Below, piece by piece: positions 46,828 through 63,801 of a stretch of DNA of 64,000 nucleotides. Within the stretch, counting starts at the first letter, position 1. Each line of letters starts with the position of its first letter. This DNA comes from an uncultured delta proteobacterium (GTDB lineage Bacteria > Myxococcota_A > Polyangia > Polyangiales > Polyangiaceae), in assembly GCA_963841435.1 (NCBI GenBank), contig CAWJCS010000002.1, positions 160,001-224,000 of the forward strand. Reading direction: 5' to 3'. A program made the position numbers and the translations under genes. A model generated the notes under the pieces. That model was not told the DNA's origin. It did not search any database and saw nothing but the letters and a program-made list of their open reading frames with translations.

Positions 46828-49317
46828 ATGCAACGAATCGGTCCTATCCCTCGAACGCCCGTCCTCGCTGCGCTCCTTTCGCTGCTCGCCCCGGGCTGCT
46901 CGCGCACGGCGACCGGCACCGGCGGGCAGGCCGCGCCCATTTCGACCGCGCGGGAGAGGCTCGCGCTCACGCCGCCGATGGGATTCAACGACTGGAACGC
47001 ATTCGGCTGCGACGTGAACGAAACGCTCATCAAGGATACGGCCGACCTCTTCGTTTCGCTGGGACTCAGGGACGCGGGCTACCGGTACGTCAACATCGAC
47101 GACTGCTGGTCGCTTCGCGAGCGCGGTCCGGACGGCAAGTTGGTGGCAGACCCGCAAAAATTTCCTTCCGGCATTCGCGGTGTGGCCGACTACCTGCACC
47201 GGCTCGGGCTCAAGCTCGGTATCTACGGCGATGCGGGCACGAAGACCTGCGCGGGCTACCCGGGCAGCCTCGGCAAGGAGAGGCTCGATGCGGCGACCTG
47301 GGCGAGCTTTGGCGTCGATTACCTCAAGTACGACAATTGCTACAACGAATCCGACGGCTCGCGCGCGGACTTCGTGCGGCGCTACACGGCGATGCGCGAA
47401 GCCATCGACGAAGCGGGCCGCCCGATGGTGTACTCGATCTGCGAATGGGGTCAGTCCCAGCCGTGGGAGTGGGCGGGAGGCATCGGCAATTCGTGGCGCA
47501 CGACGGGAGACATCAGCGACAGCTGGTCGAGCCTGCGATCCATCGTCGCCTTCAACGCGACGCTCGCCGCCCACGCTGGGCCCGGGCACTGGAACGATCC
47601 GGACATGCTCGAGATCGGCAACGGCGGCATGACGCCCACCGAATATCGCACCCACATGAGCCTCTGGTCGATGATGGCGGCGCCGCTCATCATCGGCACC
47701 GATCTGCGGCGGGCCGGCGCCGACACGCTCGCCATCCTCCGCAACCGGGAAATCATCGCGCTCGATCAGGATCCGCTCGGCAACCAGGCGCGGGTCGTGT
47801 CGGACCGTGCCGGGCGCATGGCCTTCGCCAAGCCGCTCTCGGGTGGCGATGTCGCGGTGGCGCTCTACAACGCCACGGACACCGTCGCCGTGCTCGACGT
47901 GACGTCGACGGACGCCGGTCTCCCACGGGCCCCGGCCTATCGCCTGAAGGATCTCTGGAGCGGCGTCACCTGGCAGGCCGGGGCGACCCTCGCCGCGGGT
48001 GTCCCGGCGCACGGCACGGTCGTCTACCGCGTCAGCGCCCTCGAGCACCCCCATGACTTGCCACCCCTGGTCAGCGTCGGCGCGGTGCTCGGCACGCTCA
48101 TTCCCAGCGTGCCCGGCGGAGCCACACTCACCACCACCGCCAAGAATGAGGGCCTCACGGACGCGGTCACGCTGGCGCTCGGCGTCGACGCGCCTCGCGG
48201 TTGGGTCGTCCAGGCGTCGGATGCCAGCGGCAGCGCGCGGCTCGGTCCCGGCGAGTCGCGGACGACCCACAATACCGTGACGGCGCCGGCCGACACCGGC
48301 CCTGGCCGCTACCCGATTTCGATCACGGCCCGCTACGCCTGGGGCGACGGAAGAAAGGCCGCCACGGTCGTGACGGAGCTCGTCGCCGCCGTCGTCGTGC
48401 CACCGCCCGACGGCGTCAGCCAGCTGACCGAGCTCGCCGTCGTCAGCGCCGCGAACGCCCTCGGCCCCGTCGAGCGGGACATGGCGAACGGTGGCTCGGC
48501 GGAGGGCGACGGCAACCTCATCACGCTCGGAGGCAACGTCTCCACCCGCGGACTCGGCACGCGCGCCCCGAGCGAGATCGTCTACTACCTCGGAGGGCGC
48601 TGCTCGACGCTCTCCACCGAGGTTGGCCTCGACGACGAGGTCACGGCGGGCGCCGCCTCGTTCAAAGTCCTCGCCGACGATCGCCTGGTCGCCGAGAGCG
48701 GCCCCGTTCACGCCGCAGATCCCCCGCGCGCCCTGACGGCGAACCTGACCGGCGCCCGCTGGCTCAAGCTCGTCACCGAGCCCGGCGACGCGAGCGACAG
48801 CGCCGTTGCCCCCACCGATTGGGCTCGACCGCTCCTCACTTGCGGCGAGAGCACCGCACCGACGCGCCCGGAGCTCACGATCTTCTCGTTCGAGCCGGGC
48901 ACGCCAGACGTGACTGTGTCCAAACCCGACGCGGGTGGCAACCTTTCGCCGACCCCGGCGTTTCACACCGACGGCACGCATGGCCTCGAGGTGACGAGCC
49001 CCGCCGACGGCAACTGGTTCGGGCGCTCGTTTGCACAGCCGCTCGACCTCAGCGCAAAATCGAAGCTGGCCTTCGACATCGAGACGGGCCCCGCCGGCAC
49101 GGTCGGAGAGCTCGCCGTGGAAGTAGGGCCCGAAAAGCTCTGGTGTCAGGGTGGGCGCTGGGCGTGGACGAACCCGAGCTCCAAAAAGACCATCAAGACC
49201 GCCTTCGAGGACATCCACTGCCCCCAGGGCAAAAGGCTCGACCAGGGTCGAATCATGGGCGTCTGGGTGTTCGTCAAGGCCGGCACTTTCGTCATCGATC
49301 AGGTTCGTGCGGAGTAG
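46828..49317 (+). CDS. GH27 alpha-galactosidase lipoprotein with NEW3/NPCBM-associated, NPCBM and a further C-terminal CBM-like domain
   Basis: Lipobox APGC; 'TPPMGFNDWN', 'NIDDCW', nucleophile 'YLKYDNC', acid/base 'WRTTGDI', 'WNDPDMLE'; NPCBM 'GPVERDMANG...RGLGTRAPSEIVYYL'. Confidence 0.95.
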   Translation: MQRIGPIPRTPVLAALLSLLAPGCSRTATGTGGQAAPISTARERLALTPPMGFNDWNAFGCDVNETLIKDTADLFVSLGLRDAGYRYVNIDDCWSLRERGPDGKLVADPQKFPSGIRGVADYLHRLGLKLGIYGDAGTKTCAGYPGSLGKERLDAATWASFGVDYLKYDNCYNESDGSRADFVRRYTAMREAIDEAGRPMVYSICEWGQSQPWEWAGGIGNSWRTTGDISDSWSSLRSIVAFNATLAAHAGPGHWNDPDMLEIGNGGMTPTEYRTHMSLWSMMAAPLIIGTDLRRAGADTLAILRNREIIALDQDPLGNQARVVSDRAGRMAFAKPLSGGDVAVALYNATDTVAVLDVTSTDAGLPRAPAYRLKDLWSGVTWQAGATLAAGVPAHGTVVYRVSALEHPHDLPPLVSVGAVLGTLIPSVPGGATLTTTAKNEGLTDAVTLALGVDAPRGWVVQASDASGSARLGPGESRTTHNTVTAPADTGPGRYPISITARYAWGDGRKAATVVTELVAAVVVPPPDGVSQLTELAVVSAANALGPVERDMANGGSAEGDGNLITLGGNVSTRGLGTRAPSEIVYYLGGRCSTLSTEVGLDDEVTAGAASFKVLADDRLVAESGPVHAADPPRALTANLTGARWLKLVTEPGDASDSAVAPTDWARPLLTCGESTAPTRPELTIFSFEPGTPDVTVSKPDAGGNLSPTPAFHTDGTHGLEVTSPADGNWFGRSFAQPLDLSAKSKLAFDIETGPAGTVGELAVEVGPEKLWCQGGRWAWTNPSSKKTIKTAFEDIHCPQGKRLDQGRIMGVWVFVKAGTFVIDQVRAE

Positions 49318-49391
49318 CTCACCCGAGTGCGTTCACGTCCTCGCGAATCGAAACGGACGGACGGTACGGCCGTGCTAGAGCGCCTCTCGCA

Positions 49392-50768
49392 ATGAACGCG
49401 GTGCGGATCTCGAGCGCGGTCGTTCTGTCGGTCGCTTTGCAGGCTTGCTTGGAGGATGCGGGCGTTTTCGCTGGGTCCGACGCTCGCGACTGCCCGGCCC
49501 CCACGCTCGCTTGCGGTTCTGGCTGCACGGACCCGAGCACCGACCCCGCGAACTGCGGGGCCTGCGGCCATGACTGCCAGGCGAGCGAGGTCTGCTCGGC
49601 CGGTGAGTGCCTCGACGAGTGCGCCGACGGTTCCACCGCCTGCGATCGGAGCTGCCTCGATCTCTCGAGCGACCGGGCCAACTGCGGTGGCTGTGAAAAG
49701 CCCTGCTCGGACGGCTTCTCCTGCGCCGAGGGCGGCTGTATCGCGGACGAGGGTAGCGGGGGCATGCCGGCCTCGGACCTGCGCATCAGGATCGTCGGCA
49801 AAAGGCTCAGCGCGTGCGGCCGCCCCATCGTCATGAACGGTGCCAACACGCCGTGGCACGTCTGGGACGACTTCGGTGGCAACTACGATGCCGCCTGGTG
49901 GAGCCGCCACTATGCCGACCTTCACGAGGCCGGTGTCAATGCCTCTCGCGTGTGGATCACCTGCAGCGGCGAGGTGGGGGTCGATATCGCGCCCGACGGT
50001 GCGGTCCTCGGTGCGACGCCCGCGCACTGGGAGGCTCTCGACAGCTTCTTCGCGATCGCCGAAGAGCGGCAGATCTACGTGATGGCCACGCTGATGTCCT
50101 TCGACCACTTCCAGCACGGCGCCGCGTCGCGCTACGAGGCGTGGATTGCGAGCGACGAGAACCTCGATTCGTACGTAGACAACTATCTACTTCCCTTCCT
50201 CGAACGCTACCGAGGTAGCCCCTACCTCTGGTCCATCGATCTCATGAACGAGCCCGACTGGGTGTACGAGCAGTCGGGCATCTCGTTCGAGCGGCTGCGC
50301 GCCTACTTTGCGCGCGCCGCGCGCGCCATCCACGAAAATAGCGACGTTCTGGTGACTATCGGCATGGCGTCACCGAAATACAATGCCGCGTGCCCGGGTT
50401 GCGAGCCTTCGATCACCGACGCCGAGCTGCGCGAGGCCGTGGACGATCCGAGCGTGTACCTCGACTTTTACTCCCCGCACTACTACGACTGGGTCGGTAG
50501 CGTCTGGGGCAACACCCTGCACCTCAGCCCCGATGGATCCAACTTTCGCACCGACCGACCGCTCTTGATCGGCGAGCATCCCGCCCGCGGCACCTCGGGC
50601 TATACTCTCACCGAGGATCTCGAAGCAGCTCTCGAGAACGGCTGGCAGGGAACCATGCCGTGGACGAGCAACGGCGTGGATGCAAACGGCGGTTTTGCCC
50701 AAGTGAGCGCGGCGGCAACGTCCTTTCGCGAGGCCCACCCGGCGCTGGTCTTCCCTGGTTGCCCTTGA
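49392..50768 (+). CDS. GH5-like (clan A) glycoside hydrolase lipoprotein with Cys-rich N-terminal repeats, possibly a beta-mannanase
   Basis: Lipobox LQAC; 'DPANCGACG' repeats; 'NGANTPW...DFG', acid/base 'DLMNEP', 'YSPHYYDW', nucleophile 'LIGEH', 'GTMPW'. Confidence 0.8.
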   Translation: MNAVRISSAVVLSVALQACLEDAGVFAGSDARDCPAPTLACGSGCTDPSTDPANCGACGHDCQASEVCSAGECLDECADGSTACDRSCLDLSSDRANCGGCEKPCSDGFSCAEGGCIADEGSGGMPASDLRIRIVGKRLSACGRPIVMNGANTPWHVWDDFGGNYDAAWWSRHYADLHEAGVNASRVWITCSGEVGVDIAPDGAVLGATPAHWEALDSFFAIAEERQIYVMATLMSFDHFQHGAASRYEAWIASDENLDSYVDNYLLPFLERYRGSPYLWSIDLMNEPDWVYEQSGISFERLRAYFARAARAIHENSDVLVTIGMASPKYNAACPGCEPSITDAELREAVDDPSVYLDFYSPHYYDWVGSVWGNTLHLSPDGSNFRTDRPLLIGEHPARGTSGYTLTEDLEAALENGWQGTMPWTSNGVDANGGFAQVSAAATSFREAHPALVFPGCP

Positions 50769-50801
50769 GGCGCCGCCGGGAAAAGCCGTCGATCGCCCGG
50801 C

Positions 50802-53654
50802 CTACGGGGAACCGCCGGGCGGTGCGGCCGTCACCGACAGCTCCGCGTGCGTGAGCCCCGGGGCGCTCGCCGTGAGTCGGAGCGGCCCCGGCGCTCCGGT
50901 CGATTGAACGATGACCTGCGCGAGCCCGTTGAAGAGCCGGCGGCTCCAGCGCGGGGGCGGGCCTTCGACGCGCAGCACCGCGGGGGGGATCTTCAGCGCT
51001 CGCTCGCGCGCAGAGTCGCTCTCGTAAGGCGTCGCCGTCACGGAGAGCACGTTCCGTCCCTCGCCGAGGACGTTGTTCGTGAGCGCGATGGTCGGCAAAG
51101 GCGCCCCGGGGACCATGCGGGTGGTCATCAGCTCGTGCCCGTTCAGCGAGACCACGGCGCTCGCCCCGAAATGCCGGAGGAGCAAACTGAGCCTCGCGCC
51201 CTTCGGTAGCCCTCTCGTCGTGAGCGTCCCCCGGTAGGTGGTGCCGTTCGGCGTCTTTTGCTCGCGAAAATCCGCGAACGGCAACGTCGTCACCGGTGTG
51301 ACGAAGCGGTCGGGCTCGTGGCTCGAGGGGTCCCCGTTGCCCACGCCGAGGATCCGACCGCTCCCCTCGAGCTCGAGCTCGACCGGAGCGTCGGCGGTGG
51401 GCACCGGACGGCCCTTTGCGTCCACGGCGCTCACGGTGACGACCGCGAGGTCGCGCGCGTCCGCCACGATGACGCTGCGATCGGCTTCCAGTCGCAGCTC
51501 CGTCGGAGCCCCGGTCGTCTCGACTCGCGCTTCGAGCCGCACGGTGCCGTCGACGAACCCCTTGGCGCTCAGCGTTCCTGGTGCGTACGGCACGCTCCAC
51601 GCGACGTGCCCGTAGCGCTCGATCGCCTTCTTGCCGAGGCTCTGGCCGTTCAGGAAGAGCTCGACCTCGGACAGATTCGAATACGCCCGGACCTCGATCG
51701 GTTGGCCTTCGCGCCCCGCGAAGCTCCAGTGCGGCGCGAGCTCCAAGAGCGGCTCCGGACGCCACCAGGCTTTCAGGTAGTAAAAGCTGTCCTTGGGAAA
51801 GCCGCAGGTGTCCAGAATGCCGAACTGCGAGCTGACGGCCGGGAAGCCATAGGGCGTCGACTCGCCGCGGTAGTCGAACCCGGTCCAGTAGAACAGCCCC
51901 GCGAGGTAGGGCCGCGCCGCGTAGTGACGAAGGCCCACTTCGACGTTGCCCCCGGAGCTTCCGTTGGCGAGCGGCGCCGAGTGGGCGTGCGCCGCGTCCG
52001 TGAAGTAGACGCCGCGCGTGCCCTGCGTCGTCGTCTCCTCCGTGCCGACGCCGGGCTGCCACGGGAACTTTCGATGGTGCTCGTCGGTGCTGCCGTGGGC
52101 GATGTAGTTGTAGCCCATGACCTCGGCGACGGCGGCCACACCCTCGTTCCAGTCGCCGCTCGAAGCGACCGTCGTCGGCCGGGTGGGGTCGAGCTGCTCG
52201 ACGCGCGCCCGCATGGTCTTCGCGATGCGTGCGCCGCGCTCGTCGTTCTCGATCGCCCACTCCTCGTTGCCGAGCGACCAGAGGATCACGCTCGGGTGAT
52301 TCCGGTCGCGCACGACCAGGCGTTCGAGCTCCGCGAGCGCTTTTTCGCTCGACCCCATCGAGCGATTCTCGTCGATCACCAGCATTCCCAACCGATCGCA
52401 GGCATCCAAAAGCTCGGGAGTGGGTGGGTGGTGGGATGCCCGGTAAGCGTTGCTCCCCATCGCCTTCAGGCGTTCGATGCGAAATTCCTGCAGCCGGTCG
52501 GGCAGGGCCGTGCCGACGCCCGCGTGGTCCTGGTGGTCGTTGGTTCCTTTCAAAAAGACGTGCCGGCCGTTGAGAAAGAAGCCGCGGTCCGAGTCGAAGC
52601 GAAGGGTCCGAATCCCGAAGCGGGTCACGTGGCGATCGACCTCCCCTCCACCGACGACCACGTGCGTCACGAGCTCGTGAAGGGAGGGCGACTCGAGTGA
52701 CCATAGCGCCGGCGTCGGGACGGTGAGGTCTGACACGAATTCGCGTTCGGTCCCTGCCGACAGCGTGGCCCTGCCGCCGGAGCCTCGCGCCACCACCGCT
52801 CCGTTGGGCGCGACGATTTCGAAGCGGGCCTCCACGTCGGCGTCTCCGTCCCCCGCGTCCACGACCCTGGCGCGCGCTCGCACGGTCGCGACGCCGTCGG
52901 CCACCGTCGCGGTCACGAACGTTCCGTCGTATGCGACGTGGACAGGGGCCGACTTTTCAAGCCAAACGTGCCGATAGATGCCGGCGCCCTCGTAAAACCA
53001 GCCCTCTTCCTTGCTGGCGTCCACGCGGACGGCGAGCACGTTGCGGCCGCCGTAGTCGAGGTAGTCCGTCACGTCGTACTGGACGCTCGCGTAGCCGCTC
53101 GGCTCGCGACCCACCAAGAAGCCGTTCACCCAGACGCGTGAGTCTCGAAAGACGCCGTCGAGCTCGAGCGCGATGCGTCGCCCGCGATCCGCTTTCGAGA
53201 TCTCCAGCTCCCGCCGGTACCAGCCGACGCTATTTTCGGGGAAGCCGCGCCCGAGCGCCTTGTAGCCGTGACTGTGGCTGGCCTTCGCGTCGAACGGGAG
53301 CTCGACCGCCCAGTCGTGGGGCAGATCGACGGCGCGAAAGCCTCGGTCGTCGAAATTCGGGTCGGCCGGTCCATCGCCGTACCCGGCCTTCGCCAGGTCC
53401 GAAAAGTAGGACGTCCCGTGGCCGAAATCCCGCGCGGGGTCCGCGGCGTGACCGAGGGCGAAATGGAACCCGCGGTCGAGGCTGATCCGCTCGCGTCCGC
53501 GCCCCACGCTTTTCGCGGGCACTGGCTCGGGCGTGGCCGCTCTTCCGATCGCGACGGGCTTCGGCGGGGCGCTGCGGGCGGCGGGGGCGCACGCCTGGAG
53601 GCTCGCGAGCACGCAAGCCCCGCAGAAAACACCGGCTGAGGACGGGACGCGCAT
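50802..53654 (-). CDS. GH2 beta-galactosidase (GalA-like) lipoprotein
   Basis: Lipobox LQAC; 'DLPHDW', 'KGTNDHQDHAGVG', 'YRASHHP', 'RDRNHPSVILWSLGNEE', 'WTGFDYRGE', 'GVGNGDP'. Confidence 0.95.
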   Translation of the reverse strand: MRVPSSAGVFCGACVLASLQACAPAARSAPPKPVAIGRAATPEPVPAKSVGRGRERISLDRGFHFALGHAADPARDFGHGTSYFSDLAKAGYGDGPADPNFDDRGFRAVDLPHDWAVELPFDAKASHSHGYKALGRGFPENSVGWYRRELEISKADRGRRIALELDGVFRDSRVWVNGFLVGREPSGYASVQYDVTDYLDYGGRNVLAVRVDASKEEGWFYEGAGIYRHVWLEKSAPVHVAYDGTFVTATVADGVATVRARARVVDAGDGDADVEARFEIVAPNGAVVARGSGGRATLSAGTEREFVSDLTVPTPALWSLESPSLHELVTHVVVGGGEVDRHVTRFGIRTLRFDSDRGFFLNGRHVFLKGTNDHQDHAGVGTALPDRLQEFRIERLKAMGSNAYRASHHPPTPELLDACDRLGMLVIDENRSMGSSEKALAELERLVVRDRNHPSVILWSLGNEEWAIENDERGARIAKTMRARVEQLDPTRPTTVASSGDWNEGVAAVAEVMGYNYIAHGSTDEHHRKFPWQPGVGTEETTTQGTRGVYFTDAAHAHSAPLANGSSGGNVEVGLRHYAARPYLAGLFYWTGFDYRGESTPYGFPAVSSQFGILDTCGFPKDSFYYLKAWWRPEPLLELAPHWSFAGREGQPIEVRAYSNLSEVELFLNGQSLGKKAIERYGHVAWSVPYAPGTLSAKGFVDGTVRLEARVETTGAPTELRLEADRSVIVADARDLAVVTVSAVDAKGRPVPTADAPVELELEGSGRILGVGNGDPSSHEPDRFVTPVTTLPFADFREQKTPNGTTYRGTLTTRGLPKGARLSLLLRHFGASAVVSLNGHELMTTRMVPGAPLPTIALTNNVLGEGRNVLSVTATPYESDSARERALKIPPAVLRVEGPPPRWSRRLFNGLAQVIVQSTGAPGPLRLTASAPGLTHAELSVTAAPPGGSP

Positions 53655-53671
53655 GAGCAGGCAGCCGCGGG

Positions 53672-54805
53672 CTACGATTTCGCGCGGGGACGCGCCGTGG
53701 ACCCACGCACCACGAGCTTCACTGGGGCAAGCTCCACCTTGACGGTGCCATCGGCCCCTTCGACGAGCTCGATGAGCCGTGCCATCGCGCGGCGGCCCAT
53801 GTACTCCTTGCCGACGCCGATCGTGGTGAGCGGCGGGTCCGTGTAGTTCGAAAGCAGGATGTCATCGTAGCCGATGACGCTCAGATCGCGCGGCACCTCG
53901 TAGCTCGCCTCGTGCGCGGCGCGAAGCGCTCCGGCCGCCAGCTCGTCGTTGGCGCAGAAGAGCGCCGTGACGTTGCTCCTCTTCGCGAGCAGCGAGGCCG
54001 CGGCGCGGTGTGCGGCGGCGTAGCTCAAGCCGTCGGTTTCGACCACGTTCAGCGTGCGCGAGAAGCGGCGCCCGCGCTCTTCGAAGGCCGCCCGAAAGCC
54101 CACGAGCCGCTGCTCGATGCTCGTGACGGCGCCGCGTGGCACCAGCATCGCAATCCGCTCGTGCCCCAGAGAGAACAGGTGCTCGGCGGCAAGGCGACCG
54201 CCCTCGGCGTTGTCGATCTCCAGCGTGTTCACGCTGCTCACGCGCGGGTAGGTGTCGACGAGGACGACGGGGATCGAGAGGGCCTTGATGTCTTTGATCA
54301 TCATCGGGTGGGCGCGGCGCATGAAGAGCACGCCCACCGCGTTCTTCTCGCGCACCATTTTCGGCAAGTCCTCGAAGCCCTTGTACGTCGTGTCGACGTA
54401 CGAGAAGAGCAGGTTGTAGTCGCGCTCGACCGCCTCCTTGATCGCACCCTGCACCACGAAGGAGTAGAAGTTGTTCGTGATGGCGTCGTCTTCCTTGTAG
54501 AAGACGACCCCGATGTTGCGAATGCGCATCCTGGCGAGACCCGCCGCCGCGGCGTTCGCGTGGTAGTTGAGAGCGCGCGCGGCGCCGAGCACCCGGCTCT
54601 TCACCCCCTCGCTGATGCTCTCGCTCACGTTGCCGTTCAATACGAACGAGACGGTCGCCGTCGAGACACCCGCGTGCTCGGCCACGTCACGGATCGTCGC
54701 GCGGCGCGCGGCGAGCGGCGCGCGCCGGCGGGAACCGGTCGAGGCCCGCGCGCGTTCGGTTTTTTGGCGTGACATGCGTGGAGCTGGCAACTCGGAACGG
54801 GTCAT
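53672..54805 (-). CDS. LacI-family transcriptional regulator (start 54805 or 54775)
   Basis: 'TIRDVAEHAGVSTATVSFVLN', 'FCANDELA', 'VPRDLSVIGYDD', 'PPLTTI', 'LVVRGST'. Confidence 0.95.
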   Translation of the reverse strand: MTRSELPAPRMSRQKTERARASTGSRRRAPLAARRATIRDVAEHAGVSTATVSFVLNGNVSESISEGVKSRVLGAARALNYHANAAAAGLARMRIRNIGVVFYKEDDAITNNFYSFVVQGAIKEAVERDYNLLFSYVDTTYKGFEDLPKMVREKNAVGVLFMRRAHPMMIKDIKALSIPVVLVDTYPRVSSVNTLEIDNAEGGRLAAEHLFSLGHERIAMLVPRGAVTSIEQRLVGFRAAFEERGRRFSRTLNVVETDGLSYAAAHRAAASLLAKRSNVTALFCANDELAAGALRAAHEASYEVPRDLSVIGYDDILLSNYTDPPLTTIGVGKEYMGRRAMARLIELVEGADGTVKVELAPVKLVVRGSTARPRAKS

Positions 54806-54834
54806 CGTGCCCGGTCGCCGATTTCTCCCGGGGC

Positions 54835-55746: not shown

Positions 55747-55750
55747 GCTC

Positions 55751-56635
55751 TCAATTCCCGCGTGACCGGTAAAATGCGATGTCGTCGAGCCAGATGTCGT
55801 AGTGGCTGCCCTGCACGAGCTTGATCTCGAACTTGGCGATGTCCGCCCGGTCGATGCCCCCGTCGAGTCGGTTCGGACAGGGCGACTGCAAAAGATCGCT
55901 CCACGGGATCAGGAACAGCTGCCACGACTCGGTGGTGACGACGCTCGTGTGGAACGCGTTGCCACACTCGCCGGCGACGGGCACCCGCACCCCAGCGCTC
56001 GCGGGACCGCCGACCCCGCCCTTGTAGCAGGCGGCCTCGCCGAGATCCTCGGGCGGCGGGAGGCGACACTCGGTGTCGCGTGCGATGTCGCCGGGGCCGA
56101 CGAACCCGTCGCCGTCCAGATCCTGATCCGCGGGCGTCGCCGGCGGCAGCCCGCCCTCCGCGGGTGCGTCCGGTGAAAAGAGGATCGTCCGCCCGTCGTC
56201 CACGTACAAACGGAACTGCTTGTCGGCGTTCGCGGGGCTTCTCGCCCAGAAGCTGATGCCGTCGTAGCCCGTGCCATCCGCTCGTGAGCTTTTCGGGTTG
56301 TGCGCCCAATCCCCGAAGCCCGCTCCCCAGAAGTTGTGGCCATACGCCTGGAGCTCGAGGATCCGCGTGTCGCCGCAGCGCCCGGGAGCCGGCACCTCGG
56401 TCACGGGCACGTTCGAGCCGTCGACGTTGGGATTGGGAACACCGCCTGGGGTTTCATCCGCGTACTGGAACCACCCCGACTCTGCGCCGTCGAAATTGGA
56501 GATGTTCAGGAACTCGTACGCGTCCCCGACCGAGCAGTCCGGCGGTCCGGGCGGCAACCGGTCACCCTGACTGCACCCTGAAACGAGCAGCAGGAACGAC
56601 GAGCCGAGCACCGAGATCGAGCGTTGCATCGCCAT
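55751..56635 (-). CDS. Lipoprotein with CBM11-like domain carrying a Cys/Asp-rich insertion
   Basis: Lipobox VSGC; 'YDGISFWARS', 'WQLFLIPWSDL', 'YDIWLDDIAFY'; 'DQDLDGDG' loop; TGATG coupling to the upstream gene. Confidence 0.72.
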   Translation of the reverse strand: MAMQRSISVLGSSFLLLVSGCSQGDRLPPGPPDCSVGDAYEFLNISNFDGAESGWFQYADETPGGVPNPNVDGSNVPVTEVPAPGRCGDTRILELQAYGHNFWGAGFGDWAHNPKSSRADGTGYDGISFWARSPANADKQFRLYVDDGRTILFSPDAPAEGGLPPATPADQDLDGDGFVGPGDIARDTECRLPPPEDLGEAACYKGGVGGPASAGVRVPVAGECGNAFHTSVVTTESWQLFLIPWSDLLQSPCPNRLDGGIDRADIAKFEIKLVQGSHYDIWLDDIAFYRSRGN

Positions 56636-58140
56636 CACCACCAGAAGGTCGCGGACAGAGAAAGCACGTGCCGGTCCGGGTTCAGGCTCGGATCGTCCAA
56701 GGGCGGATACCCTCGAGCTGCGTACACCTCCTGACCGTAGGCGAAGTACGAGTACGACAGCGCGAACTCGTCCCGGCTCAGCCAGTTGGTGTGAAACAGC
56801 AGGCGCCCGGTGTACGTGTTGAACGAACGGCGGTTCACCTTGCTGTCGAGGCGGACGTGGTCGAACCGAGCCGACGTGCCGAACCAGGAGAGCAGGTTGT
56901 AGGTGGCTTCGAGGCCCGCCTTGAGCTTGAGCACGCCGTCGTAGTCGGGGTCGTCGCTGGTCACCTTCGTGCCGATCCCGAAAATGCTGAAGAGCACGTC
57001 GGTGTTCATGCCGCGGTACTGCTTGTCGAAGAGCATCCGGGATAGGCTCATGTCGTACTGGGCACCGAAGGTCGTGAGCGAGCCGTTGCCGTGGCTATTC
57101 GGCCCCAGATACTCACGGATGAGACCCGCGCCACCGCGCGCGTTCAGCACCTCGACGATGCCGGAGACGACCTCGGAGTCGACCGCGAGGGTGCGCGCGC
57201 CGCCGAGGTAGAGGTGCCCCCAGCGTCCGGCGGTGAGGCGCGCGTCCGCACCGAGGAGGCTGATGCGGCCGTCGGCCAACGTGGAGTCGAGGCCCTGGTC
57301 GTCGTGGCTGAAGGCCGTCAGGTAGTGCACGCCGAGCTGAAGGAGCCCCGACCAGGCGAGCCCCGCGTGGAGATGGCCGACGAAGCTCGCGCCCGCGTTG
57401 GGATCGGCGAAGCCGTTCCACCCGCTCGACGTGAGGCCGTTCGGCGTGTGACCGAGCTGACCACCGATGCCCTGTTCGAGAACGAGGGTGGTCTTGCCGA
57501 GCTCGAAACCGGCGGTGAGCGTTTCGCCGACGGAATTGATGCGGGCGATCAGCGGCGTCGCGTAGCGACCGGAGTCGAAGGCTCCCATGGCTCCGTAGCG
57601 CTGGGTCACGGCGCCCATGCGAAGCTGGAACGGAGTGCCGACGGACTCCGTCAGATTCAAGGTGACGAAGGCGTCACTCACCCCGAGCTGGCGCACGGGG
57701 TCGTAGACGGCTTCTGCCTCCGTGGCCGTGGTGGCGGCGAGAATCGCCGTCGCTGCGACCAACGAGTTACCGTAGGTGAAGTTGAGCTGCACCCAGGGGT
57801 CGGGCACCACCGCCGTGTACTGAAACCGGCGGTAATCCTGCGGAATGAGCGGTGGGGTGTGAAGCACGGTGTGGCTCTGGCCCGGGCCCGGATCCTCGCG
57901 CCTGTGCAAGCCGAGCCGCATGGGCAAGAGCAGGTAGCCGTGAAAATCGAGCACGTACTCCTTCGACGTGGCCGGGGGGATGCCGAACGGCGTCGAGGGC
58001 GGTGCGCTCCGGACCTGGGGCTCGGCGGGGTCGAGCCCGAGTCGGGGCAGCTCGGGAACGTCTTCTATGGGTTTCGCCAGCGTTTGCGTGGGCACGGCGA
58101 GTACCGAGAGCAAGAGCCAGCCCGTAAGGGCGCGTCGCAT
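56635..58140 (-). CDS. Uncharacterised outer-membrane beta-barrel protein (paralog B)
   Basis: Sec signal; amphipathic strands starting 'LDFHGYL'; C-terminal 'VLSLSATFWW' beta-signal. Confidence 0.7.
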   Translation of the reverse strand: MRRALTGWLLLSVLAVPTQTLAKPIEDVPELPRLGLDPAEPQVRSAPPSTPFGIPPATSKEYVLDFHGYLLLPMRLGLHRREDPGPGQSHTVLHTPPLIPQDYRRFQYTAVVPDPWVQLNFTYGNSLVAATAILAATTATEAEAVYDPVRQLGVSDAFVTLNLTESVGTPFQLRMGAVTQRYGAMGAFDSGRYATPLIARINSVGETLTAGFELGKTTLVLEQGIGGQLGHTPNGLTSSGWNGFADPNAGASFVGHLHAGLAWSGLLQLGVHYLTAFSHDDQGLDSTLADGRISLLGADARLTAGRWGHLYLGGARTLAVDSEVVSGIVEVLNARGGAGLIREYLGPNSHGNGSLTTFGAQYDMSLSRMLFDKQYRGMNTDVLFSIFGIGTKVTSDDPDYDGVLKLKAGLEATYNLLSWFGTSARFDHVRLDSKVNRRSFNTYTGRLLFHTNWLSRDEFALSYSYFAYGQEVYAARGYPPLDDPSLNPDRHVLSLSATFWW

Positions 58141-58204
58141 GGAACACCTTCCTAACTTCTGCTCGGATCGAACGACTGGCTTCACGAAGACCATGAGCTG
58201 CTCC

Positions 58205-59785
58205 CTAGAAGACGATGCTGGCCCCGAGGGTGAACACGTCGCGGTCCAGTGGCTGGGCGGGGTTGTTGTCCGTGAAGTCCGAGTAAAAATAGCGGGAGTA
58301 GGCGAGCTCCATCCGGTCCTGGCTTTGCCAGTCGGAATGCAGCGCCACGCCCAGTGAAGCGTCGTAGGCCACCCACCTGCCGCGACGAGGCTGGCCGTTC
58401 ACGTTGACCACCGTCGAGTCACGGCTCTCCCCGAACAACCGATACGTGGTGCTGAGCCAGGAGAGCAACACGTGCTCGACGCTGCCGCCCACGAAGTAGC
58501 CGTCGGCGCCGTCGTAGCTCGGGTCGTCGGTTTTCAGCGTCCAGAAAGGCACGAAAGCCAGCACGACCCGCAGATCGCGACCATTGCCGTCGAATGCCTC
58601 GGGAAAGGAGAGCATGCGCGAGACGCTGAAGTCGTACTCGGTGCTCACGGCCATGATGCGCCCGGTGCCGTCGCTCTGCGGGCCGAGAAATTTGCTGGTC
58701 ATCTCACGACCACCCGCGGTCCAGTCGAGCCCCCACCAGATCCCGTCGTGCACGGAACGGGCGTGGTCGAAGTTCCAGAAGACCGTCGTGACGCCGAGCT
58801 CGCCGTAGGGATCCTCGACCCCTCGAAGCTCGAGCGCGGCAACTTCCATCCGACCGTCGGGGCCGTGCTCGACTTCGGGGGTGCTCGCGTCGTCGTCGAG
58901 GTAACGGCGCATGTTGCGTCCGTCCGCGAGCGCCATATGGAGCTTCGCGAAGTACTTGTTCTTGAGGCTGACGCCGACGTGCGCGTGACTGACGATGCTC
59001 GAGAGCCCGTTTTCCGGCCACTGCGTATAGGTGCCGCGCACGAAGCTCTCGGGCACCTCCGGCACCGCGCTCGTGCCGTACTCGAGCGAGAAAAGCATTT
59101 CCTTCGGCAGCTCGTAGTCGAGCGCCGCGACGCCACCGTAGCCATGCACGGCGAGCACCGGGCCGAACATTCCCCAGCCCCACGGGCCAGGCGCGCCGTA
59201 CTGAGCGGGGAACGCGCCGACCTGGAACCTCAGCCGAGCGCGGCCCATCGCCGGCGGTGTCACCGTGACGTAAGCGGTTCTGAGACGGGGGCCGTTCTCG
59301 GCGCGGTAGTAGCCCTCCCACTCCGGCGCGGCCAACGCGACCTCGTAGGAGGCGAACGCCATGATGAGCTGATTGCCGTATTGGAAGTCGAGCCTCGTGG
59401 CTGTCCCGCTCCAGAACGGGCTACGACCCAAGGTGAGCGGCGGCGTGTGTAGCGGCGTGCCGTGGCTCGAAGAGGGAACCGAAGGGCTCCTTCCGACGCC
59501 GACCTGCCCCCAGGCGGAGAAACGCCCACCGAGCCGAAAGACCCACGAGTCCGGATCGGTCGGAGCGCCGAAGGAAGGAGCGCGCCCTCCGGGCGCGGGC
59601 GGGGCGGGGGGCGCCTCGGGAGACAGGCCAACGCCGACGGGCCGTGGCGAGCCGGGAGCTGCGTCGACGGCTCGCTCTTGCGCGCGCCCGAGGCTCGCAC
59701 CGAGCAGGCAGGTCGCGGCCGCGACGCAGGCCGCACCGTAGCGCCACGAAAGCCTCGCGCTCCCGAGCCCGATCGACCTCGTCAC
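58205..59785 (-). CDS. Uncharacterised outer-membrane beta-barrel protein (paralog A)
   Basis: Signal peptide ending GRA-QE, Pro-rich linker, C-terminal 'VFTLGASIVF'; GTG overlaps the cytochrome TGA; colinear motifs shared with paralog B. Confidence 0.7.
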   Translation of the reverse strand: MTRSIGLGSARLSWRYGAACVAAATCLLGASLGRAQERAVDAAPGSPRPVGVGLSPEAPPAPPAPGGRAPSFGAPTDPDSWVFRLGGRFSAWGQVGVGRSPSVPSSSHGTPLHTPPLTLGRSPFWSGTATRLDFQYGNQLIMAFASYEVALAAPEWEGYYRAENGPRLRTAYVTVTPPAMGRARLRFQVGAFPAQYGAPGPWGWGMFGPVLAVHGYGGVAALDYELPKEMLFSLEYGTSAVPEVPESFVRGTYTQWPENGLSSIVSHAHVGVSLKNKYFAKLHMALADGRNMRRYLDDDASTPEVEHGPDGRMEVAALELRGVEDPYGELGVTTVFWNFDHARSVHDGIWWGLDWTAGGREMTSKFLGPQSDGTGRIMAVSTEYDFSVSRMLSFPEAFDGNGRDLRVVLAFVPFWTLKTDDPSYDGADGYFVGGSVEHVLLSWLSTTYRLFGESRDSTVVNVNGQPRRGRWVAYDASLGVALHSDWQSQDRMELAYSRYFYSDFTDNNPAQPLDRDVFTLGASIVF

Positions 59786-60300
59786 GGGCGCCGCACCGAA
59801 AGCTTCACGGAGCCGGCGTTCTTGTCGGTCACGCCCTCGGGCGGCACCTCGACGCCGTGGGCCACGAGCATGAAAGAGACGATGGCAAAGTAGTCCTCGG
59901 TCGAGAGCGAGCTTCGCTTGTCCTCCGACGGCGGCATGTTCTTGCTGACGAAGGTGTAGAGGTCTTTCGCGGTGCGGAAGGGATCGCGCCACGGCGCGCC
60001 GGCGGGGCGCGATTGCGCTTGCAGCCGGAGCGTCTCGGGATCACCCGACGCCGGATCGGCGTTGGCGTTGCGCGCCCTCGGGTACTCGGGAAGGGCTCCC
60101 TCACCCAGGATGCGCGGCGCGCTGGTCCCACTTTCGCCCCGCGCACCGTGGCACCCGGCGCACTGCTCGGCGAACAGGGTTGCACCCGCGGACGAGGCGC
60201 TCTTCGCCCGGGCCAGATTGGCGTCCGTGGCGCCGTACTGCGTGGCAGCACAGGCGCCCGCGATCGCAGCGGTGATCACGAACGCACATCGTCTGACCAT
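59782..60300 (-). CDS. Monoheme c-type cytochrome lipoprotein
   Basis: Lipobox AGAC; 'GATLFAEQCAGCHG', distal Met in 'VSKNMPP'. Confidence 0.88.
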   Translation of the reverse strand: MVRRCAFVITAAIAGACAATQYGATDANLARAKSASSAGATLFAEQCAGCHGARGESGTSAPRILGEGALPEYPRARNANADPASGDPETLRLQAQSRPAGAPWRDPFRTAKDLYTFVSKNMPPSEDKRSSLSTEDYFAIVSFMLVAHGVEVPPEGVTDKNAGSVKLSVRRP

Positions 60301-60380
60301 GATTCAGCGCGCGGCAGTCTGCGCGGAGACGGCATCGAACTCAAGGGCCGACAAGCCATCATCGCACCACGCGAGTTGAC

Positions 60381-60409
60381 CATTCTCATCTTCGACAGGT
60401 CATTCGCAT
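60381..60409. promoter_or_regulatory. Direct repeat CATTCTCAT/CATTCGCAT (20-bp period) in the divergent promoter region
   Basis: Read directly between the cytochrome operon and the GH44 gene. Confidence 0.35.
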
Positions 60410-60501
60410 AAGTGGCCACCCCGATAGGGCACGAACCCCTTGAGATCCCGCGGCACCTGTCACAACCCTTGCCGTCGCGCTGAGCCCTGGAGACGGATGA
60501 C

Positions 60502-62874
60502 ATGCGAGCTTCGATCGCCAAAACCTGCATCACGCTGAGTCTGCTGACCGCGGCGGTCCTCGCCGCCGCATCGAGCTGCGTCAGACCGCCGCCCTACGAT
60601 CCCTCGAAGGTCGAAACGTCCGAGGTCGAGGTGACCAACGACGTGACGCTGCTCTGGGACGGCGACGAGCACGGCGGCAGCGCCAAAGAATGGGCGAGCT
60701 GCAACCTGAAGGACGCGTGCAAGAGCACGGTGAAAGTCGCGCCGGGCTCGGGTGTGAACGATTCCGTCGGACTCGAATGGCACGTCGAAGGCAAAGACTG
60801 GAAGGGCTTCGGCTGGAACTGGCACGGCTTCTGGCCCGAGAACGCCGGCACCGACGTTTCGGGATTCAAGAACCTGAGCTTCTGGATCCGCCTCAAGCTC
60901 GACGATCCGAAAAAAGCACCGGAGCTCAAGGATCTGACGGTGGGCCTCGCCGGCTCCAACAAGGCCAAGGGGGAGTCGGCCACGGTGCCGCTCGTCGGTT
61001 ACGTCAACGGCCTGGCCGACGAAAAATGGCACGAAATCGTCGTTCCGATCGGTGATCTCACCAAGGGCAAGGGCAAGGACTTCGACCTCACGAAGGTATG
61101 GGAGCTCCGGCTCGGCGAGTACGCCATGTCGGAACGCAACTTCACCGTCTTCGTCAACAACATCGGCTTCGACGACCGGAAGCTCGTCGCGCTCATCAGC
61201 TTGCCCGAAAAGAGGGCTCCGGCACCGCTCGGCAGCGAGGTCGTCAACGTCGTGGCGAAGGTCGACCTGGCCGCCCCCGGTACGGCCGTGAGCCCGTACA
61301 TCTATGGGGTGAGCCACGGCGACGCCGAGGCGTTGCACGAGATGGGCGTCACCATCCGGCGTCAGGGCGGCAACCTCTCGAGCGTGTACGACTGGCGTAC
61401 TGGCTTCACCTCCGCGGGGGCCGACTGGTTCTTCGAGAACCGCAAGATGCTGGAGACGCCCCACCCCGAGGAAAACGTGTGGGTGGTGATGCACCGCGAG
61501 AACAAGAAGTTCGGGATGAAGAGCTTCTTCACCCTGCCGTCGGAATGGGTTGCCAAGGACGACAAGTCGAGCGGCTTCCCCAAGGATGTCTACCCGGAAT
61601 GCGAAGGATTCGCTCCCGACCGACCCGACGCGTGCAACGGAAAGCTTGTGCAGAAGGACAAAGAGGGCAACCCCATCAAGCTCAGCTGCGGCGCGCACCC
61701 GACCCAGAACGGAAAGTACGTGGGTACCGACTACAACGTCGAGCTCGTCAAATACTGCATCAAGGACGCCGGCCTCGGTCGCGCCGATCAGGGCGGCATC
61801 GGCATCATTTCGCTCGACAACGAGCCCATGCTCTACACGGAAACCCACCGTGACATGATCTGCAAGGGCTTCACCTACGACGAGTACTGGGCGCGCACCA
61901 AGAAGGCCGCCGAGGGCATTCACGCCGCGGATCCCAGTGTGAAGGTGGCGGCCCCGGCGCTCTGGGGCTGGACGGCCTATTCACTCGCGTCTGGCGATCT
62001 AAAGTATCGCGAGGAGCACGGCCTCGGTTGGGACGCGACGAGCAAGCTTCCCGATTTTGCCAAGTACGGCCCCTTCGCCCTCGACTTCATGCGCCGCTGT
62101 GCCGAGTACAAGAAGCAGACCGGCAAGAACCTGGTCAACATCTTCGTGTTCCACGGCTACCCGAACACGCCCAAGCTCGGCTGGGACAACCGCGCCGAGT
62201 TCGCCCATCCTTCCCCCGAGCTTCAGGAGCTCCGCGTTCGCGACGTGAGGAAATTCTGGGACGAATCGTACCGGGACCCCGACACCTGGATGGGCAAGGA
62301 AAGCTGGAGCAACGGCAACATCGCCTATGTCCCGCTGATGCGGCGCTGGATGAAGCAGGCCGGCTGGGACGTGCCGATCGCCATCGGCGAATACGACTAT
62401 TCCGGCCCCGAAGGTGGCGAGGAAATCTCCGCCGCCGTGGCTCAGGCCGAAAGCCTCGCGGCCTTCGCCCGCTCGGGGGTGAGCTACGCCATGTACTGGG
62501 CCGACCCGCGCAAACACGGGCCGGTGTATTTCGCGTTCAAGATGTACCGAAACCCCGACGGCAAGCGCACGGCCGTGGGCGATCGCTTCATCGTGGGTGA
62601 GGTCAGCGATTTCGACAGCGTGAGCGTGTACGCGTTCAAGGACGAGAAGAAGAAGGTCGCCTCGTTCATGATTCTCAACAAGCGGGCGACGAAGGGGGCC
62701 AACGTGGTGCTCGAGCTCGGCGCTCCCGTCCCGACCCAGAAGGCGCCACGCTACGAGTACAGCCGGGCCAACCAGAAAGCGATCGGCGAGCTACCGCCGC
62801 TGGACGTGAGTGGAAAGAGCGTTCACCTCGGCATCGCGCCAATGTCGATCTTGCGGGTGGACGTGAAGCTTTGA
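60502..62874 (+). CDS. GH44 endoglucanase/xyloglucanase lipoprotein with N-terminal CBM30/CBM11-like module
   Basis: Lipobox ASSC; 'VSPYIYG', 'RQGGN...YDW...GADWFF', acid/base 'LDNEP', nucleophile 'AIGEYDY', 'FKMYRNPDG'. Confidence 0.9.
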   Translation: MRASIAKTCITLSLLTAAVLAAASSCVRPPPYDPSKVETSEVEVTNDVTLLWDGDEHGGSAKEWASCNLKDACKSTVKVAPGSGVNDSVGLEWHVEGKDWKGFGWNWHGFWPENAGTDVSGFKNLSFWIRLKLDDPKKAPELKDLTVGLAGSNKAKGESATVPLVGYVNGLADEKWHEIVVPIGDLTKGKGKDFDLTKVWELRLGEYAMSERNFTVFVNNIGFDDRKLVALISLPEKRAPAPLGSEVVNVVAKVDLAAPGTAVSPYIYGVSHGDAEALHEMGVTIRRQGGNLSSVYDWRTGFTSAGADWFFENRKMLETPHPEENVWVVMHRENKKFGMKSFFTLPSEWVAKDDKSSGFPKDVYPECEGFAPDRPDACNGKLVQKDKEGNPIKLSCGAHPTQNGKYVGTDYNVELVKYCIKDAGLGRADQGGIGIISLDNEPMLYTETHRDMICKGFTYDEYWARTKKAAEGIHAADPSVKVAAPALWGWTAYSLASGDLKYREEHGLGWDATSKLPDFAKYGPFALDFMRRCAEYKKQTGKNLVNIFVFHGYPNTPKLGWDNRAEFAHPSPELQELRVRDVRKFWDESYRDPDTWMGKESWSNGNIAYVPLMRRWMKQAGWDVPIAIGEYDYSGPEGGEEISAAVAQAESLAAFARSGVSYAMYWADPRKHGPVYFAFKMYRNPDGKRTAVGDRFIVGEVSDFDSVSVYAFKDEKKKVASFMILNKRATKGANVVLELGAPVPTQKAPRYEYSRANQKAIGELPPLDVSGKSVHLGIAPMSILRVDVKL

Positions 62875-63801
62875 CCGAGACCCGCGGGCGCGCAGCGCCT
62901 CGCTCGGACTGCCGCCGCGGAGCGCGCGGAACACCCGGTGAAACTGCGCGTAGCTACCGAACCCTGCGCCTTCGGCCGCGGCGTGCAAATTGTCGCCACC
63001 GGCATCGAGCAACGTCTGGAAGCGCTCGAGTCGGAGCCGATTTCTGTACTCGACGAGCGACATCCCCATCTCGCGCTTGAACACGCGAGCCAGGCGGCTC
63101 AGCGTGATACCGAGCTCGGCGGCGAGCTCTTTGCCGGAAAGCGACGGTTCTTTCGCGAGGCGGCGCACGGTCCCGACGACCATGGGATTCCCCGGTGCTG
63201 CGAGCTCGCCGACGGGGCGCGCGAGGGGACCGCGCCTCAGATCCAGCACGGTCGCGAGGAGTGAGCAGAGCAGCGACGCGCGCGCCTGCCTGGCATCGTC
63301 GAGCGGCGTGCCCGTCGCACCGGGGTCGTTGAACATCATGCCCAGCGTTCCGCGCACCGAGCGGATGGGGGTGCACGCCAACCAGCCGCGACCGACCACG
63401 CGCGTCTCGCTCTCGAGCTGGACGACGAGCGGCGAGTTGTCGATCACCGTGAACGGAATGCCTTCCTCGTCGGCCCGGCGAAACACCTCGCGATCGTAGT
63501 CCCCCAGGCTGTACATGACGTGATGCTCGTCGACGAGGCGCCGCTCGAGGTCCGTGCCCCAGGTGCCGAGCATGGCGGTTCCGGTTTCGTCGAGCAGGAA
63601 CAGCCCCACGCGCACGAGCCCCACGCGTTCCAGCGCGAGCTCGACCGCACGCTTGAGCAAGCGTTCGCCGTCCTCGATGGCGGCGAGCTCGTCGAAGGCG
63701 GAAAGCAGCGGATCCACCGCGGGCGGCGGAGCCAGGATCTCCGGGGGCGGCTGATCCACATCGAGGATCAACGGCCAATCGACGCGGCGTCTGAGGTTCA
63801 C
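62791..63801 (-). CDS. AraC-family regulator with N-terminal GAF-like domain
   Basis: 'ELAAELGITLSRLARVFKREMG', 'AGFGSYAQFHRVFR'; N-terminal 'RVGLFLLD...GTWG...CTPIRS' GAF-like pattern. Confidence 0.85.
   Translation of the reverse strand: MNLRRRVDWPLILDVDQPPPEILAPPPAVDPLLSAFDELAAIEDGERLLKRAVELALERVGLVRVGLFLLDETGTAMLGTWGTDLERRLVDEHHVMYSLGDYDREVFRRADEEGIPFTVIDNSPLVVQLESETRVVGRGWLACTPIRSVRGTLGMMFNDPGATGTPLDDARQARASLLCSLLATVLDLRRGPLARPVGELAAPGNPMVVGTVRRLAKEPSLSGKELAAELGITLSRLARVFKREMGMSLVEYRNRLRLERFQTLLDAGGDNLHAAAEGAGFGSYAQFHRVFRALRGGSPSEALRARGSRSKLHVHPQDRHWRDAEVNALSTHVQRR

Follow-up and report, generated by a model that had tools for sequence, protein, structure and literature searches.

A polysaccharide-utilization locus of an uncultured Polyangiaceae bacterium with a predicted pair of remote LamB-like sugar porins as its probable importer

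We analyzed a 64,000-nucleotide stretch of contig CAWJCS010000002.1 (hereafter the window) from the genome of an uncultured Polyangiaceae bacterium (7.78 Mb, 95% complete), focusing on a locus in which two predicted outer-membrane barrels, barrel A and barrel B, are encoded among glycoside hydrolases (GH), two lipoproteins and a cytochrome c. A preliminary description had proposed eleven genes in a given order and orientation, and all of them were present as proposed, with a coding-like GC content at third codon positions (Table 1). The two gene overlaps it mentioned were read in the sequence, GTGA between the cytochrome and barrel A (59782-59785) and TGATG between barrel B and lipoprotein 1 (56633-56637). 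Pfam matches in the window were obtained for GH27 (Melibiase_2 and NPCBM), GH2, LacI, cytochrome c, GH44 and AraC. The GH5-like protein, without a Pfam Cellulase match, matched solved beta-1,4-mannanases (best E 1.4e-22), and the family of the GH44 N-terminal domain showed a weak SGBP_B_XBD match (E 0.005). Pfam and NCBIfam scans gave no match for barrel A, barrel B or lipoprotein 2. As had been claimed, no TonB receptor, SusD, ABC or MFS gene lies within 46828-63801. The lipoboxes attributed to the four hydrolases pass a crude lipobox rule, as do both lipoproteins and the cytochrome; this rule is a motif test rather than a signal-peptide predictor and was passed by 0 of 46 cytoplasmic controls. 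Among the clusters of relatives, it was passed by 11 of 13 for GH44, 0 of 4 for GH27 and 1 of 7 for GH2.

Table 1. Genes of the locus and their positions in the window.
Feature	Position	Strand	Basis
GH27 alpha-galactosidase with NPCBM domains, lipobox-like motif	46828..49317	+	Pfam Melibiase_2 (E 1e-82), NPCBM
GH5-like, nearest to beta-1,4-mannanases, N-side Cys-rich (Stig1/MXAN_6577-like) repeats, lipobox-like motif	49392..50768	+	Solved structures
GH2, nearest to beta-galactosidases, lipobox-like motif	50802..53654	-	Pfam; solved matches E 4e-132
LacI-family regulator	53672..54775	-	Pfam LacI and Peripla_BP_3
Lipoprotein 2 (LipB family), Gly/Ser/Thr linker and domain weakly related to lipoprotein 1	54835..55734	-	Profile cross-matches
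Lipoprotein 1 (LipA family), CBM11-like beta-sandwich, candidate glycan-capture partner	55751..56635	-	Model and fold match
Barrel B, predicted 18-stranded LamB/ScrY-like outer-membrane porin	56635..58140 (alternative start 58194)	-	AlphaFold2 model
Barrel A, remodelled paralog of barrel B	58205..59785	-	Homology to barrel B
Cytochrome c, monoheme class I c-type lipoprotein, first gene of the cassette	59782..60300	-	Pfam Cytochrom_C
GH44 endoglucanase/xyloglucanase-type lipoprotein, N-terminal CBM-like domain, divergent from the cytochrome	60502..62874	+	Pfam GH44; solved GH44 E 5e-50
AraC-family regulator, convergent with GH44 and overlapping its end	62791..63801	-	Pfam HTH_18

The AlphaFold2 model of barrel B (pLDDT 88.5, pTM 0.86) is an antiparallel barrel whose 18 long strands span residues 63-500, with no plug-sized domain. 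When this model was compared with 48,161 representative chains, the maltoporin LamB came first (Z 26.1, rmsd 3.5, 356 residues aligned) and the sucrose porin ScrY second (Z 25.5). The next folds, after a gap of about 6 Z units, were the Occ/OprD channels (Z 19.2); the export porins AlgE and Wzi scored 17.6-18.9 (AlgE 17.7) and TonB receptors 10.8-11.9. Identity to LamB and ScrY was 11-13%. Residues 64-501 of the model align on residues 1-421 of LamB, and the ends of these ranges place H67-G68-Y69 of barrel B on H4-G5-Y6 of LamB and W500 on W420. In LamB, Y6 and W420 are greasy-slide residues and the channel is lined by loops L1, L3 and L6, according to part of the text of PMC3509688. The slide comprises six aromatic residues (Y6, Y41, W74, F227, W358 and W420), of which the two end positions could be placed in barrel B. 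In the barrel B alignment (A1), 96% of sequences have Y or F at position 69 and 92% keep W500; relatives from starch loci match LamB further along the first strand, through A7-R8. Conserved segments were also observed where loops L1, L3 and L6 would lie, as assigned from the strand order of the model. These range ends and motifs suggest that barrel B is a remote homolog of the LamB-type sugar porins. Among 8000 candidates scored, 621 were homologs of barrel B, forming 526 clusters at 50% identity. None of the 120 matches listed carries a functional name, the few named homologs are Polyangiaceae or Polyangia, and the clusters retrieved from the ESM Atlas are unnamed 'porin family' groups of Myxococcota.

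To describe the genomic surroundings of this family, we took the best 80 of 165 barrel B family loci from GTDB genomes, with genes called by our own codon-model caller, and dropped one (L112, 44% GC), leaving 79 (L-numbers label the loci compared here, and G000 is the genome of the window). Pfam scans (thresholds 1e-4 and 1e-8) covered 214 of 338 neighbour-cluster representatives, the other 124 all being shorter than 250 residues. A GH was found in 62 of the 79 loci, and the gene directly 3' of barrel B belongs to a lipoprotein family resembling carbohydrate-binding modules (CBM) in 71 of the 75 loci that have a gene there, to the LipA family in 65 of 75; the neighbourhood check suggested by the preliminary description thus placed the barrel homologs near carbohydrate-active enzymes (CAZymes) and CBM lipoproteins. 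Among loci of at least 15 kb, 46 of 51 carry a GH and 42 of 51 carry two or more. By family, GH74, identified by matches to xyloglucanases of the PDB, occurs in 40 of the 79 loci, GH31 in 19, GalK in 14, GH44 in 13, GH3 in 12, SSS in 11, GH5 in 9, GalT in 6, and GH95 and CE20-like esterases in 3 each, together with GH42/GH2 galactosidases and sugar kinases. The same core gene arrangement recurs in most of the 79 loci from other genomes and is not due to chance; a one-off jumble of genes was accordingly rejected. The loci collapse to 69, 55, 31 and 5 clusters at 90, 80, 70 and 60% barrel identity, of which 56, 44, 23 and 5, respectively, carry a GH.

No TonB receptor, SusD, OPX, Wzx/Wzy or glycosyltransferase family was found among the representatives scanned, and SusD (PF07980) had no match in the 95% complete genome of the window. 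The lack of an ABC importer noted in the preliminary description stands for this locus and does not extend to the family, since an SSS, ABC, SBP or MFS gene is present in 19 of the 79 related loci; we therefore rejected the idea that lacking an inner-membrane importer defines the family. Of the proteins of 200 residues or more, barrels excluded, CAZymes made up 170 of 597 near barrels and 7 of 118 in random windows of this genome, a control made at the stricter threshold of 1e-9 in one genome, with 118 of 186 proteins scanned (the rest of L128 and L129-L133 left out). With a single BLAST detector in this genome, 6 of the 7 loci with a barrel had a CAZyme within 10 kb, as had 1 of the 10 with a TonB receptor and 20% of random positions, and two or more lay within that distance of 5 of 7, 0 of 10 and 3.6%, respectively; this contrast is flattered, because the BLAST library held barrel-locus enzymes and two of the seven loci overlap. 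Two CAZyme clusters of this genome stand apart from any family barrel, one with PL3, CE8 and PL9 and the other with GH31 and a split GH29 (L118:12664-18275 and L120:3690-11873).

Barrel A is 26% identical to barrel B (E 5e-22), and a profile-profile comparison joined the two over their full length (probability 100%, 456 columns). This homology, with the 18 strands and LamB/ScrY fold of barrel B, answers the concern that the barrels might prove to be ordinary TonB receptors or no barrels at all. A TonB-receptor identity was rejected: barrel B is predicted to have 18 strands, not 22, and no plug, and the genome's ten matches to PF00593 are all at other sites. A remote family of LamB-like sugar porins describes the barrels better than a wholly new channel. 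Within the clade of the window, the HGY motif and the terminal WW were found in 63 and 62 of 67 downstream barrels and in none of 67 upstream barrels. Barrel A instead conserves tryptophans (W202, W204 and W351 invariant, W350 in 99% and W256 in 94% of 67 sequences), whose positions are predicted by alignment to fall in inward loops. Two barrels are present in 77 of 79 loci; wherever there are exactly two (76 loci), an A-like barrel lies upstream of a B-like one, with a more distant upstream barrel in the nine divergent loci. We give about even chances to the two barrels acting as one mixed oligomer, which would be the simplest arrangement. A complex prediction for barrel B with lipoprotein 1 scored 0.00 in two runs and gives no answer either way.

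A tree of 89 barrels, covering 28 of the 79 loci (rooted at the midpoint solely for display; L181, on the same contig as L077, left out), grouped the downstream barrels from pairs of the xyloglucan, xylan and mannan types as a single clade (support 99) that also holds L165. The barrel A clade stands on a long stem (1.09), the pectin pair is a separate duplication, and the remaining single barrels fall outside. The genome of the window alone holds 12 barrel genes at 7 loci. Beyond the locus described here, pairs occur in a mannan-type locus (two GH5, CE2), a xylan-type locus (GH10, GH3, GH67), a pectin-type locus (two pectate lyases, KduI, MFS) and beside GalK/MalK genes; of the single barrels, one lies beside GH9, GH8 and GH94 and one with lipoproteins only. 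These single barrels (L002:8362-10278 and L005:7538-9523) are 80% identical to each other, one sitting in a cellulose locus and the other just between two lipoproteins. In the GalK locus (L006:3050-4624 and ~6260-8400; G000:C6 1678050-1683000), the downstream barrel apparently has a frameshift close to its C-terminal end, and the lipoprotein genes upstream are broken up, through assembly errors or decay. In three of the other loci (L101, L103 and L117), the barrel pair is followed by an ABC/FtsX-type set and an unannotated 1410-residue protein with a weak Peptidase_M28 match; no CAZyme was found there, and the cassette is possibly repurposed.

In a sample of the phylum, 17 of 301 genomes gave a barrel match, with only five candidates scored per genome. 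Paralogous and distant barrels sit in xylan, mannan, cellulose, pectin, arabinan and starch loci. Among 15 distant single-barrel loci (L165-L178 and L183), 13 carry glycan genes: ten have a GH15-like gene, several have GH13, sugar ABC or starch-binding domains, one combines GH94 and GH9 (cellulose), and two are arabinose clusters with GH54 (L168 and L169). No glycan genes were seen in L165, L182 or L183. The GH15-like gene encodes an unannotated protein of 700-820 residues that always accompanies distant single barrels in L166 and L170-L178, is fused to the barrel in L173 (6709-10686) and, from its weak similarity to GH15 (best E 3e-8), probably represents a new glucoamylase-like family of starch loci. 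The arabinose cluster of the window's own genome (GH54, a ribulokinase-type kinase, AraA and AraD) ends with a canonical LamB, the sole PF02264 match of the genome (298 bits; L134:9568-11073, G000:C6 ~756800-758100). This cluster is homologous to those of L168 and L169 (AraA 68-70%, AraD 71-73% and GH54 43-44% identical), which carry a family barrel; the two kinds of porin therefore occupy the same slot.

Downstream of the barrels, lipoprotein 1 gave a sub-threshold match to Pfam CBM_11 (PF03425; E 0.0023, 18.4 bits, cut-off 27), and its profile found no useful match among PDB sequences. Its model (pLDDT 89.6) matched CBM11 (1v0a; Z 15.6, rmsd 3.0, 162 residues aligned), with CBM30 (Z 14.3) and then mostly other CBMs further down, and cysteines and tryptophans are conserved in it. 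The family of lipoprotein 2, LipB, is present in 52 of 79 loci, and the LipA, LipB and LipC profiles cross-match each other. Both lipoproteins may bind glycans at the cell surface. More than ten further CBM11-like lipoprotein genes, an expanded unannotated group, were seen away from barrel loci on several contigs of this genome.

The cytochrome has 172 residues, a lipobox cysteine at position 17, a single CxxCH (47-51) and Met122 as its likely distal ligand; its nearest solved chain is 2xts_B, matched by both halves, and the ESM Atlas returned generic cytochrome c clusters. Across 43 sequences, C17, C47, C50 and H51 are invariant, and of the candidate distal ligands Met122 occurs in 30 and His121 in 29, one or the other being present in all 43; from this pattern the heme would stay six-coordinate with a potential that is not fixed. 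The cytochrome was found in 46 of 79 loci, directly upstream of the barrels in 41 of 66. Starting from the cytochrome in 301 genomes of the class, we obtained 24 strong matches, the window included and 19 of them from one family; 19 directly precede barrel A, two are at a contig edge, two are separated from a barrel pair by 6 and 15 kb, and one is an orphan. On metagenome contigs, 17 strong matches have 1 kb or more of sequence downstream, and 12 of these stand before barrel A; among the others, two lie among CAZymes and two, like the orphan, belong to a subfamily linked to a branched-chain amino-acid ABC importer. This second subfamily adjoins such a LIV-type importer in three loci (L135:10159-10707, L208 and L209), so that both subfamilies neighbour uptake systems. 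The cytochrome is thus a conserved member of the cassette in this clade and is absent from most other barrel loci. We tentatively favour a structural or redox-sensing role, as an accessory attached either to barrel A or to the complex for uptake; the variable distal ligand fits this better than a fixed link in an electron chain. An electron acceptor for sugar oxidation is rather unlikely, and mere co-regulation a little more so. LPMO_10 was above its cut-off in none of five genomes searched; GSDH-type domains occurred in four of these five and in none of this genome's barrel loci. No oxidoreductase partner recurs among the scanned neighbours, and the longer proteins that match the cytochrome cover just 10-28% of it, with no fusion of the full family domain.

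As regards the substrate, GH44 is present in 9 of the ten closest loci, with GH27, GH2, GH5 or CE20-like genes, and GH74 and GH31 in none of them. These two families occur together in 15 of 79 sister loci, and both exist elsewhere in this genome, outside the window. The wider clade is dominated by xyloglucan enzymes. The combination of a mannanase-like GH5 with an alpha-galactosidase makes galactoglucomannan the somewhat likelier substrate of this subclade, at roughly one chance in two, with xyloglucan a weaker, still serious candidate. In five loci (L083, L086, L089, L090 and L091), a non-phosphorylative fucose-type set (amidohydrolase, short-chain dehydrogenase, enolase-family dehydratase and FAA hydrolase) lies upstream of the cassette, which fits fucosylated xyloglucan. 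With respect to regulation, LacI is not conserved among the ten closest loci. No sigma-70-type promoter was detected at the locus, terminator-like sites were fewer than in shuffles, and no convincing operator was seen among the short repeats of the intergenic regions. Next to GH27, the window encodes an MscS-family mechanosensitive channel (45073-46719, minus strand), apparently unrelated to the locus.

We consider it likely that the locus serves polysaccharide utilization and that two remotely LamB-like sugar porins act as its outer-membrane importer, a reading that builds on observed gene content, conservation and homology and on the predicted folds of barrel B and lipoprotein 1. It upholds the proposal that the locus is a functional analogue of such loci with the barrels as oligosaccharide channels: CAZymes, a predicted barrel transporter and a regulator are clustered, and none of the contrary outcomes that were looked for was observed. 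The membrane-anchored endo-enzymes GH44 and GH5 would cut a beta-1,4-linked, galactose-decorated hemicellulose, and the CBM11-like lipoproteins would keep the glycan or its fragments close to the pore. Oligosaccharides would then traverse the outer membrane through barrels A and B by facilitated diffusion, while GH27 and GH2 would strip galactose and sustain an inward gradient, with inner-membrane import and catabolism presumably encoded elsewhere in the genome. The best description is probably a TonB-independent oligosaccharide uptake module, in which transport by the barrels, its inward direction and its energy independence are what the genes and folds suggest.

Several points weigh against this reading. 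A shared fold does not by itself establish function, and no sequence method tried linked barrel B to LamB: the PF02264 and NCBIfam LamB profiles matched neither barrel, the barrel profile scored a probability of 0.2% with this genome's canonical LamB, and it had no match among PDB sequences at E 1. The two slide end residues were placed through range ends rather than by residue-level alignment, and barrel A lacks both. The CBM11 match of lipoprotein 1 is tied with a non-carbohydrate CIA30-type chain (Z 14.7). The loci are kin, as their barrel identity clusters indicate, so the census counts are not independent. This genome is also rich in CAZymes: random 20-kb windows, none with a barrel, held a CAZyme in 3 of 10 cases and two or more in 2 of 10, and this Pfam background is a fairer control than the BLAST comparison. 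No CAZyme was found in 5 of the 51 long loci, three of which are low in GC or poorly gene-called, nor near the barrels of L002, L165, L182 and L183. Finally, the substrate is uncertain, since no inner-membrane transporter is encoded in the locus and GH74 and GH31 are missing from all ten loci closest to it.

The rival that we take most seriously, although we lean away from it, is a variant within the import reading: A and B would form separate homo-oligomeric porins with different sugar preferences, the lipoproteins and the cytochrome being only co-regulated. The different lumen-type residues conserved in A and B would suit it, as would the single barrels that serve cellulose, starch and arabinose loci, the CBM11-like lipoproteins found away from barrels in this genome and the mannan, xylan and pectin pairs that have no adjacent cytochrome. 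It accounts less well for the retention of two barrels in 77 of 79 loci, A-like upstream and B-like downstream in 76, for the likewise retained pectin pair, which was duplicated separately, or for the stop/start overlaps that join the cytochrome to barrel A and barrel B to lipoprotein 1. At the other extreme, an obligate heteromeric LamB-fold channel might be imagined, in which B would keep the sugar slide, A would contribute a new tryptophan-lined site for branched fragments of hemicellulose, the pore would be fed by a CBM11-like lipoprotein and the monoheme cytochrome would be a bound subunit coupling or gating uptake to redox; we regard this full scheme as unlikely.

Readings in which the barrels do not import sugars fare much worse. 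Myxobacteria are described in part of PMC9603273 as exporting polysaccharide through 18-stranded barrels encoded beside OPX genes, so that export pores for exopolysaccharide (WzpX/AlgE-like), or pores bringing lipoprotein enzymes to the cell surface, had to be considered, the more so as many neighbours are lipoproteins. The GH44 protein also matches an M. xanthus-type EpsB model (E 6e-67), but with 226 bits where the cut-off is 1250. As fold matches, LamB and ScrY reach Z 25-26 and AlgE and Wzi 17.6-18.9; no OPX, Wzx/Wzy or glycosyltransferase gene was seen in the window or among the 214 representatives, and the neighbours are degradative or catabolic and vary with the glycan; in a homologous locus, moreover, a canonical LamB swaps for the barrel. 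An export role is therefore very improbable. So, slightly more, is a porin-cytochrome conduit that would carry electrons through the outer membrane so that plant polymers could be attacked oxidatively. The linkage of the cytochrome with barrel A is tight and reciprocal, and a potential distal heme ligand is always kept, both of which speak for it. Known porin-cytochrome conduits such as MtrAB have multiheme wires spanning the barrel, whereas the cytochrome here has one CxxCH in 172 residues. The negative searches for LPMO_10 in five genomes, for a recurring oxidoreductase among the scanned neighbours and for a full-domain fusion argue against it as well, as do the lack of the cytochrome in most other barrel loci and the sister subfamily beside a branched-chain amino-acid importer.

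Uncultured Polyangia are reported as CAZyme-rich in straw-degrading communities, for example in the portion of PMC12735889 used here. In the literature covered (titles and abstract openings, with most subscription journals outside), we found no description of product uptake by uncultured Polyangia, of this barrel family or of the cassette; a word search for 'myxo' in a 2026 review of glycoside transporters (PMC13543919) returned no occurrence. The barrel family would supply the missing transporter for Polyangia and mark loci for at least seven glycan types. As it has no Pfam or NCBIfam model, such loci would be missed by transporter-based predictors. A porin could thus take the place held elsewhere by SusC/D or TonB-dependent transporters (TBDTs), with a different predicted ecology, driven by diffusion and poorer at scavenging at low concentration. 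The parts open to test are candidate porins for cello-oligosaccharides and for those of xyloglucan, mannan and xylan, a sugar porin that may be heteromeric, and the heme partner. If the heteromer with a heme subunit were true, it would be a sugar channel with a heme subunit and a third Gram-negative architecture for polysaccharide foraging, beside SusC/D and the proteobacterial TBDTs.

Among known systems, LamB and ScrY (PF02264; PDB 1mpr, 1mal and 1a0s) are closest at the membrane: they share the 18-stranded plugless barrel and are the best fold match, the first-strand HGY and terminal W of barrel B are in register with Y6 and W420, and the genes lie in loci for sugar use, which in the starch type include sugar ABC importers. 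The barrels differ from them in their 11-13% identity, the lack of a profile match, the keeping of two divergent paralogs rather than one gene and a conserved N-terminal extension before strand 1. They differ further in their partners (CBM11-like lipoproteins, cytochrome c and membrane-anchored endo-glycanases) and in the many glycan types served within one genome. The Vibrio chitoporin ChiP, known here from part of PMC3558487, is similarly a specific porin gating oligosaccharides from an insoluble polysaccharide, but belongs to another porin fold class (Z 17.9) and is a single gene for one substrate. The CBM11 of Clostridium thermocellum Lic26A-Cel5E (1v0a) is the best fold match of lipoprotein 1, which in contrast stands alone, has a large Cys-containing insertion, is 17% identical and falls below the Pfam cut-off.

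In organisation, the comparison is with the loci of other polysaccharide degraders, which rely on SusC/SusD in Bacteroidota and on TonB-dependent receptors in Proteobacteria. The Bacteroidota scheme has one locus per glycan, with CAZymes, a regulator, an outer-membrane transporter and non-catalytic lipoproteins. The locus of the window shares the locus-per-glycan organisation and the lipoprotein enzymes; unlike SusC/SusD loci, it has no TonB-dependent transporter and no SusD, its lipoproteins are CBM11-like beta-sandwiches, and its plugless porin predicts diffusion rather than energised uptake. The xyloglucan locus of Xanthomonas, as presented in part of PMC8245568, comprises two TBDTs, both required for growth on xyloglucan oligosaccharides, with GH74, GH31, GH35, GH95, CE20 and adjacent MFS and xylose genes. 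The sister loci described here resemble it in GH74, GH31, GH95, CE20-like genes and two tandem outer-membrane transporters, which are LamB-like porins and not TBDTs; the subclade of the window differs further in carrying GH44, GH27, GH2 and GH5 without GH74 or GH31. Overall, this is a polysaccharide-utilization locus in the broad sense, LamB/mal- or ChiP-like at the membrane and Sus-like in organisation, and by their defining features a member of neither group.

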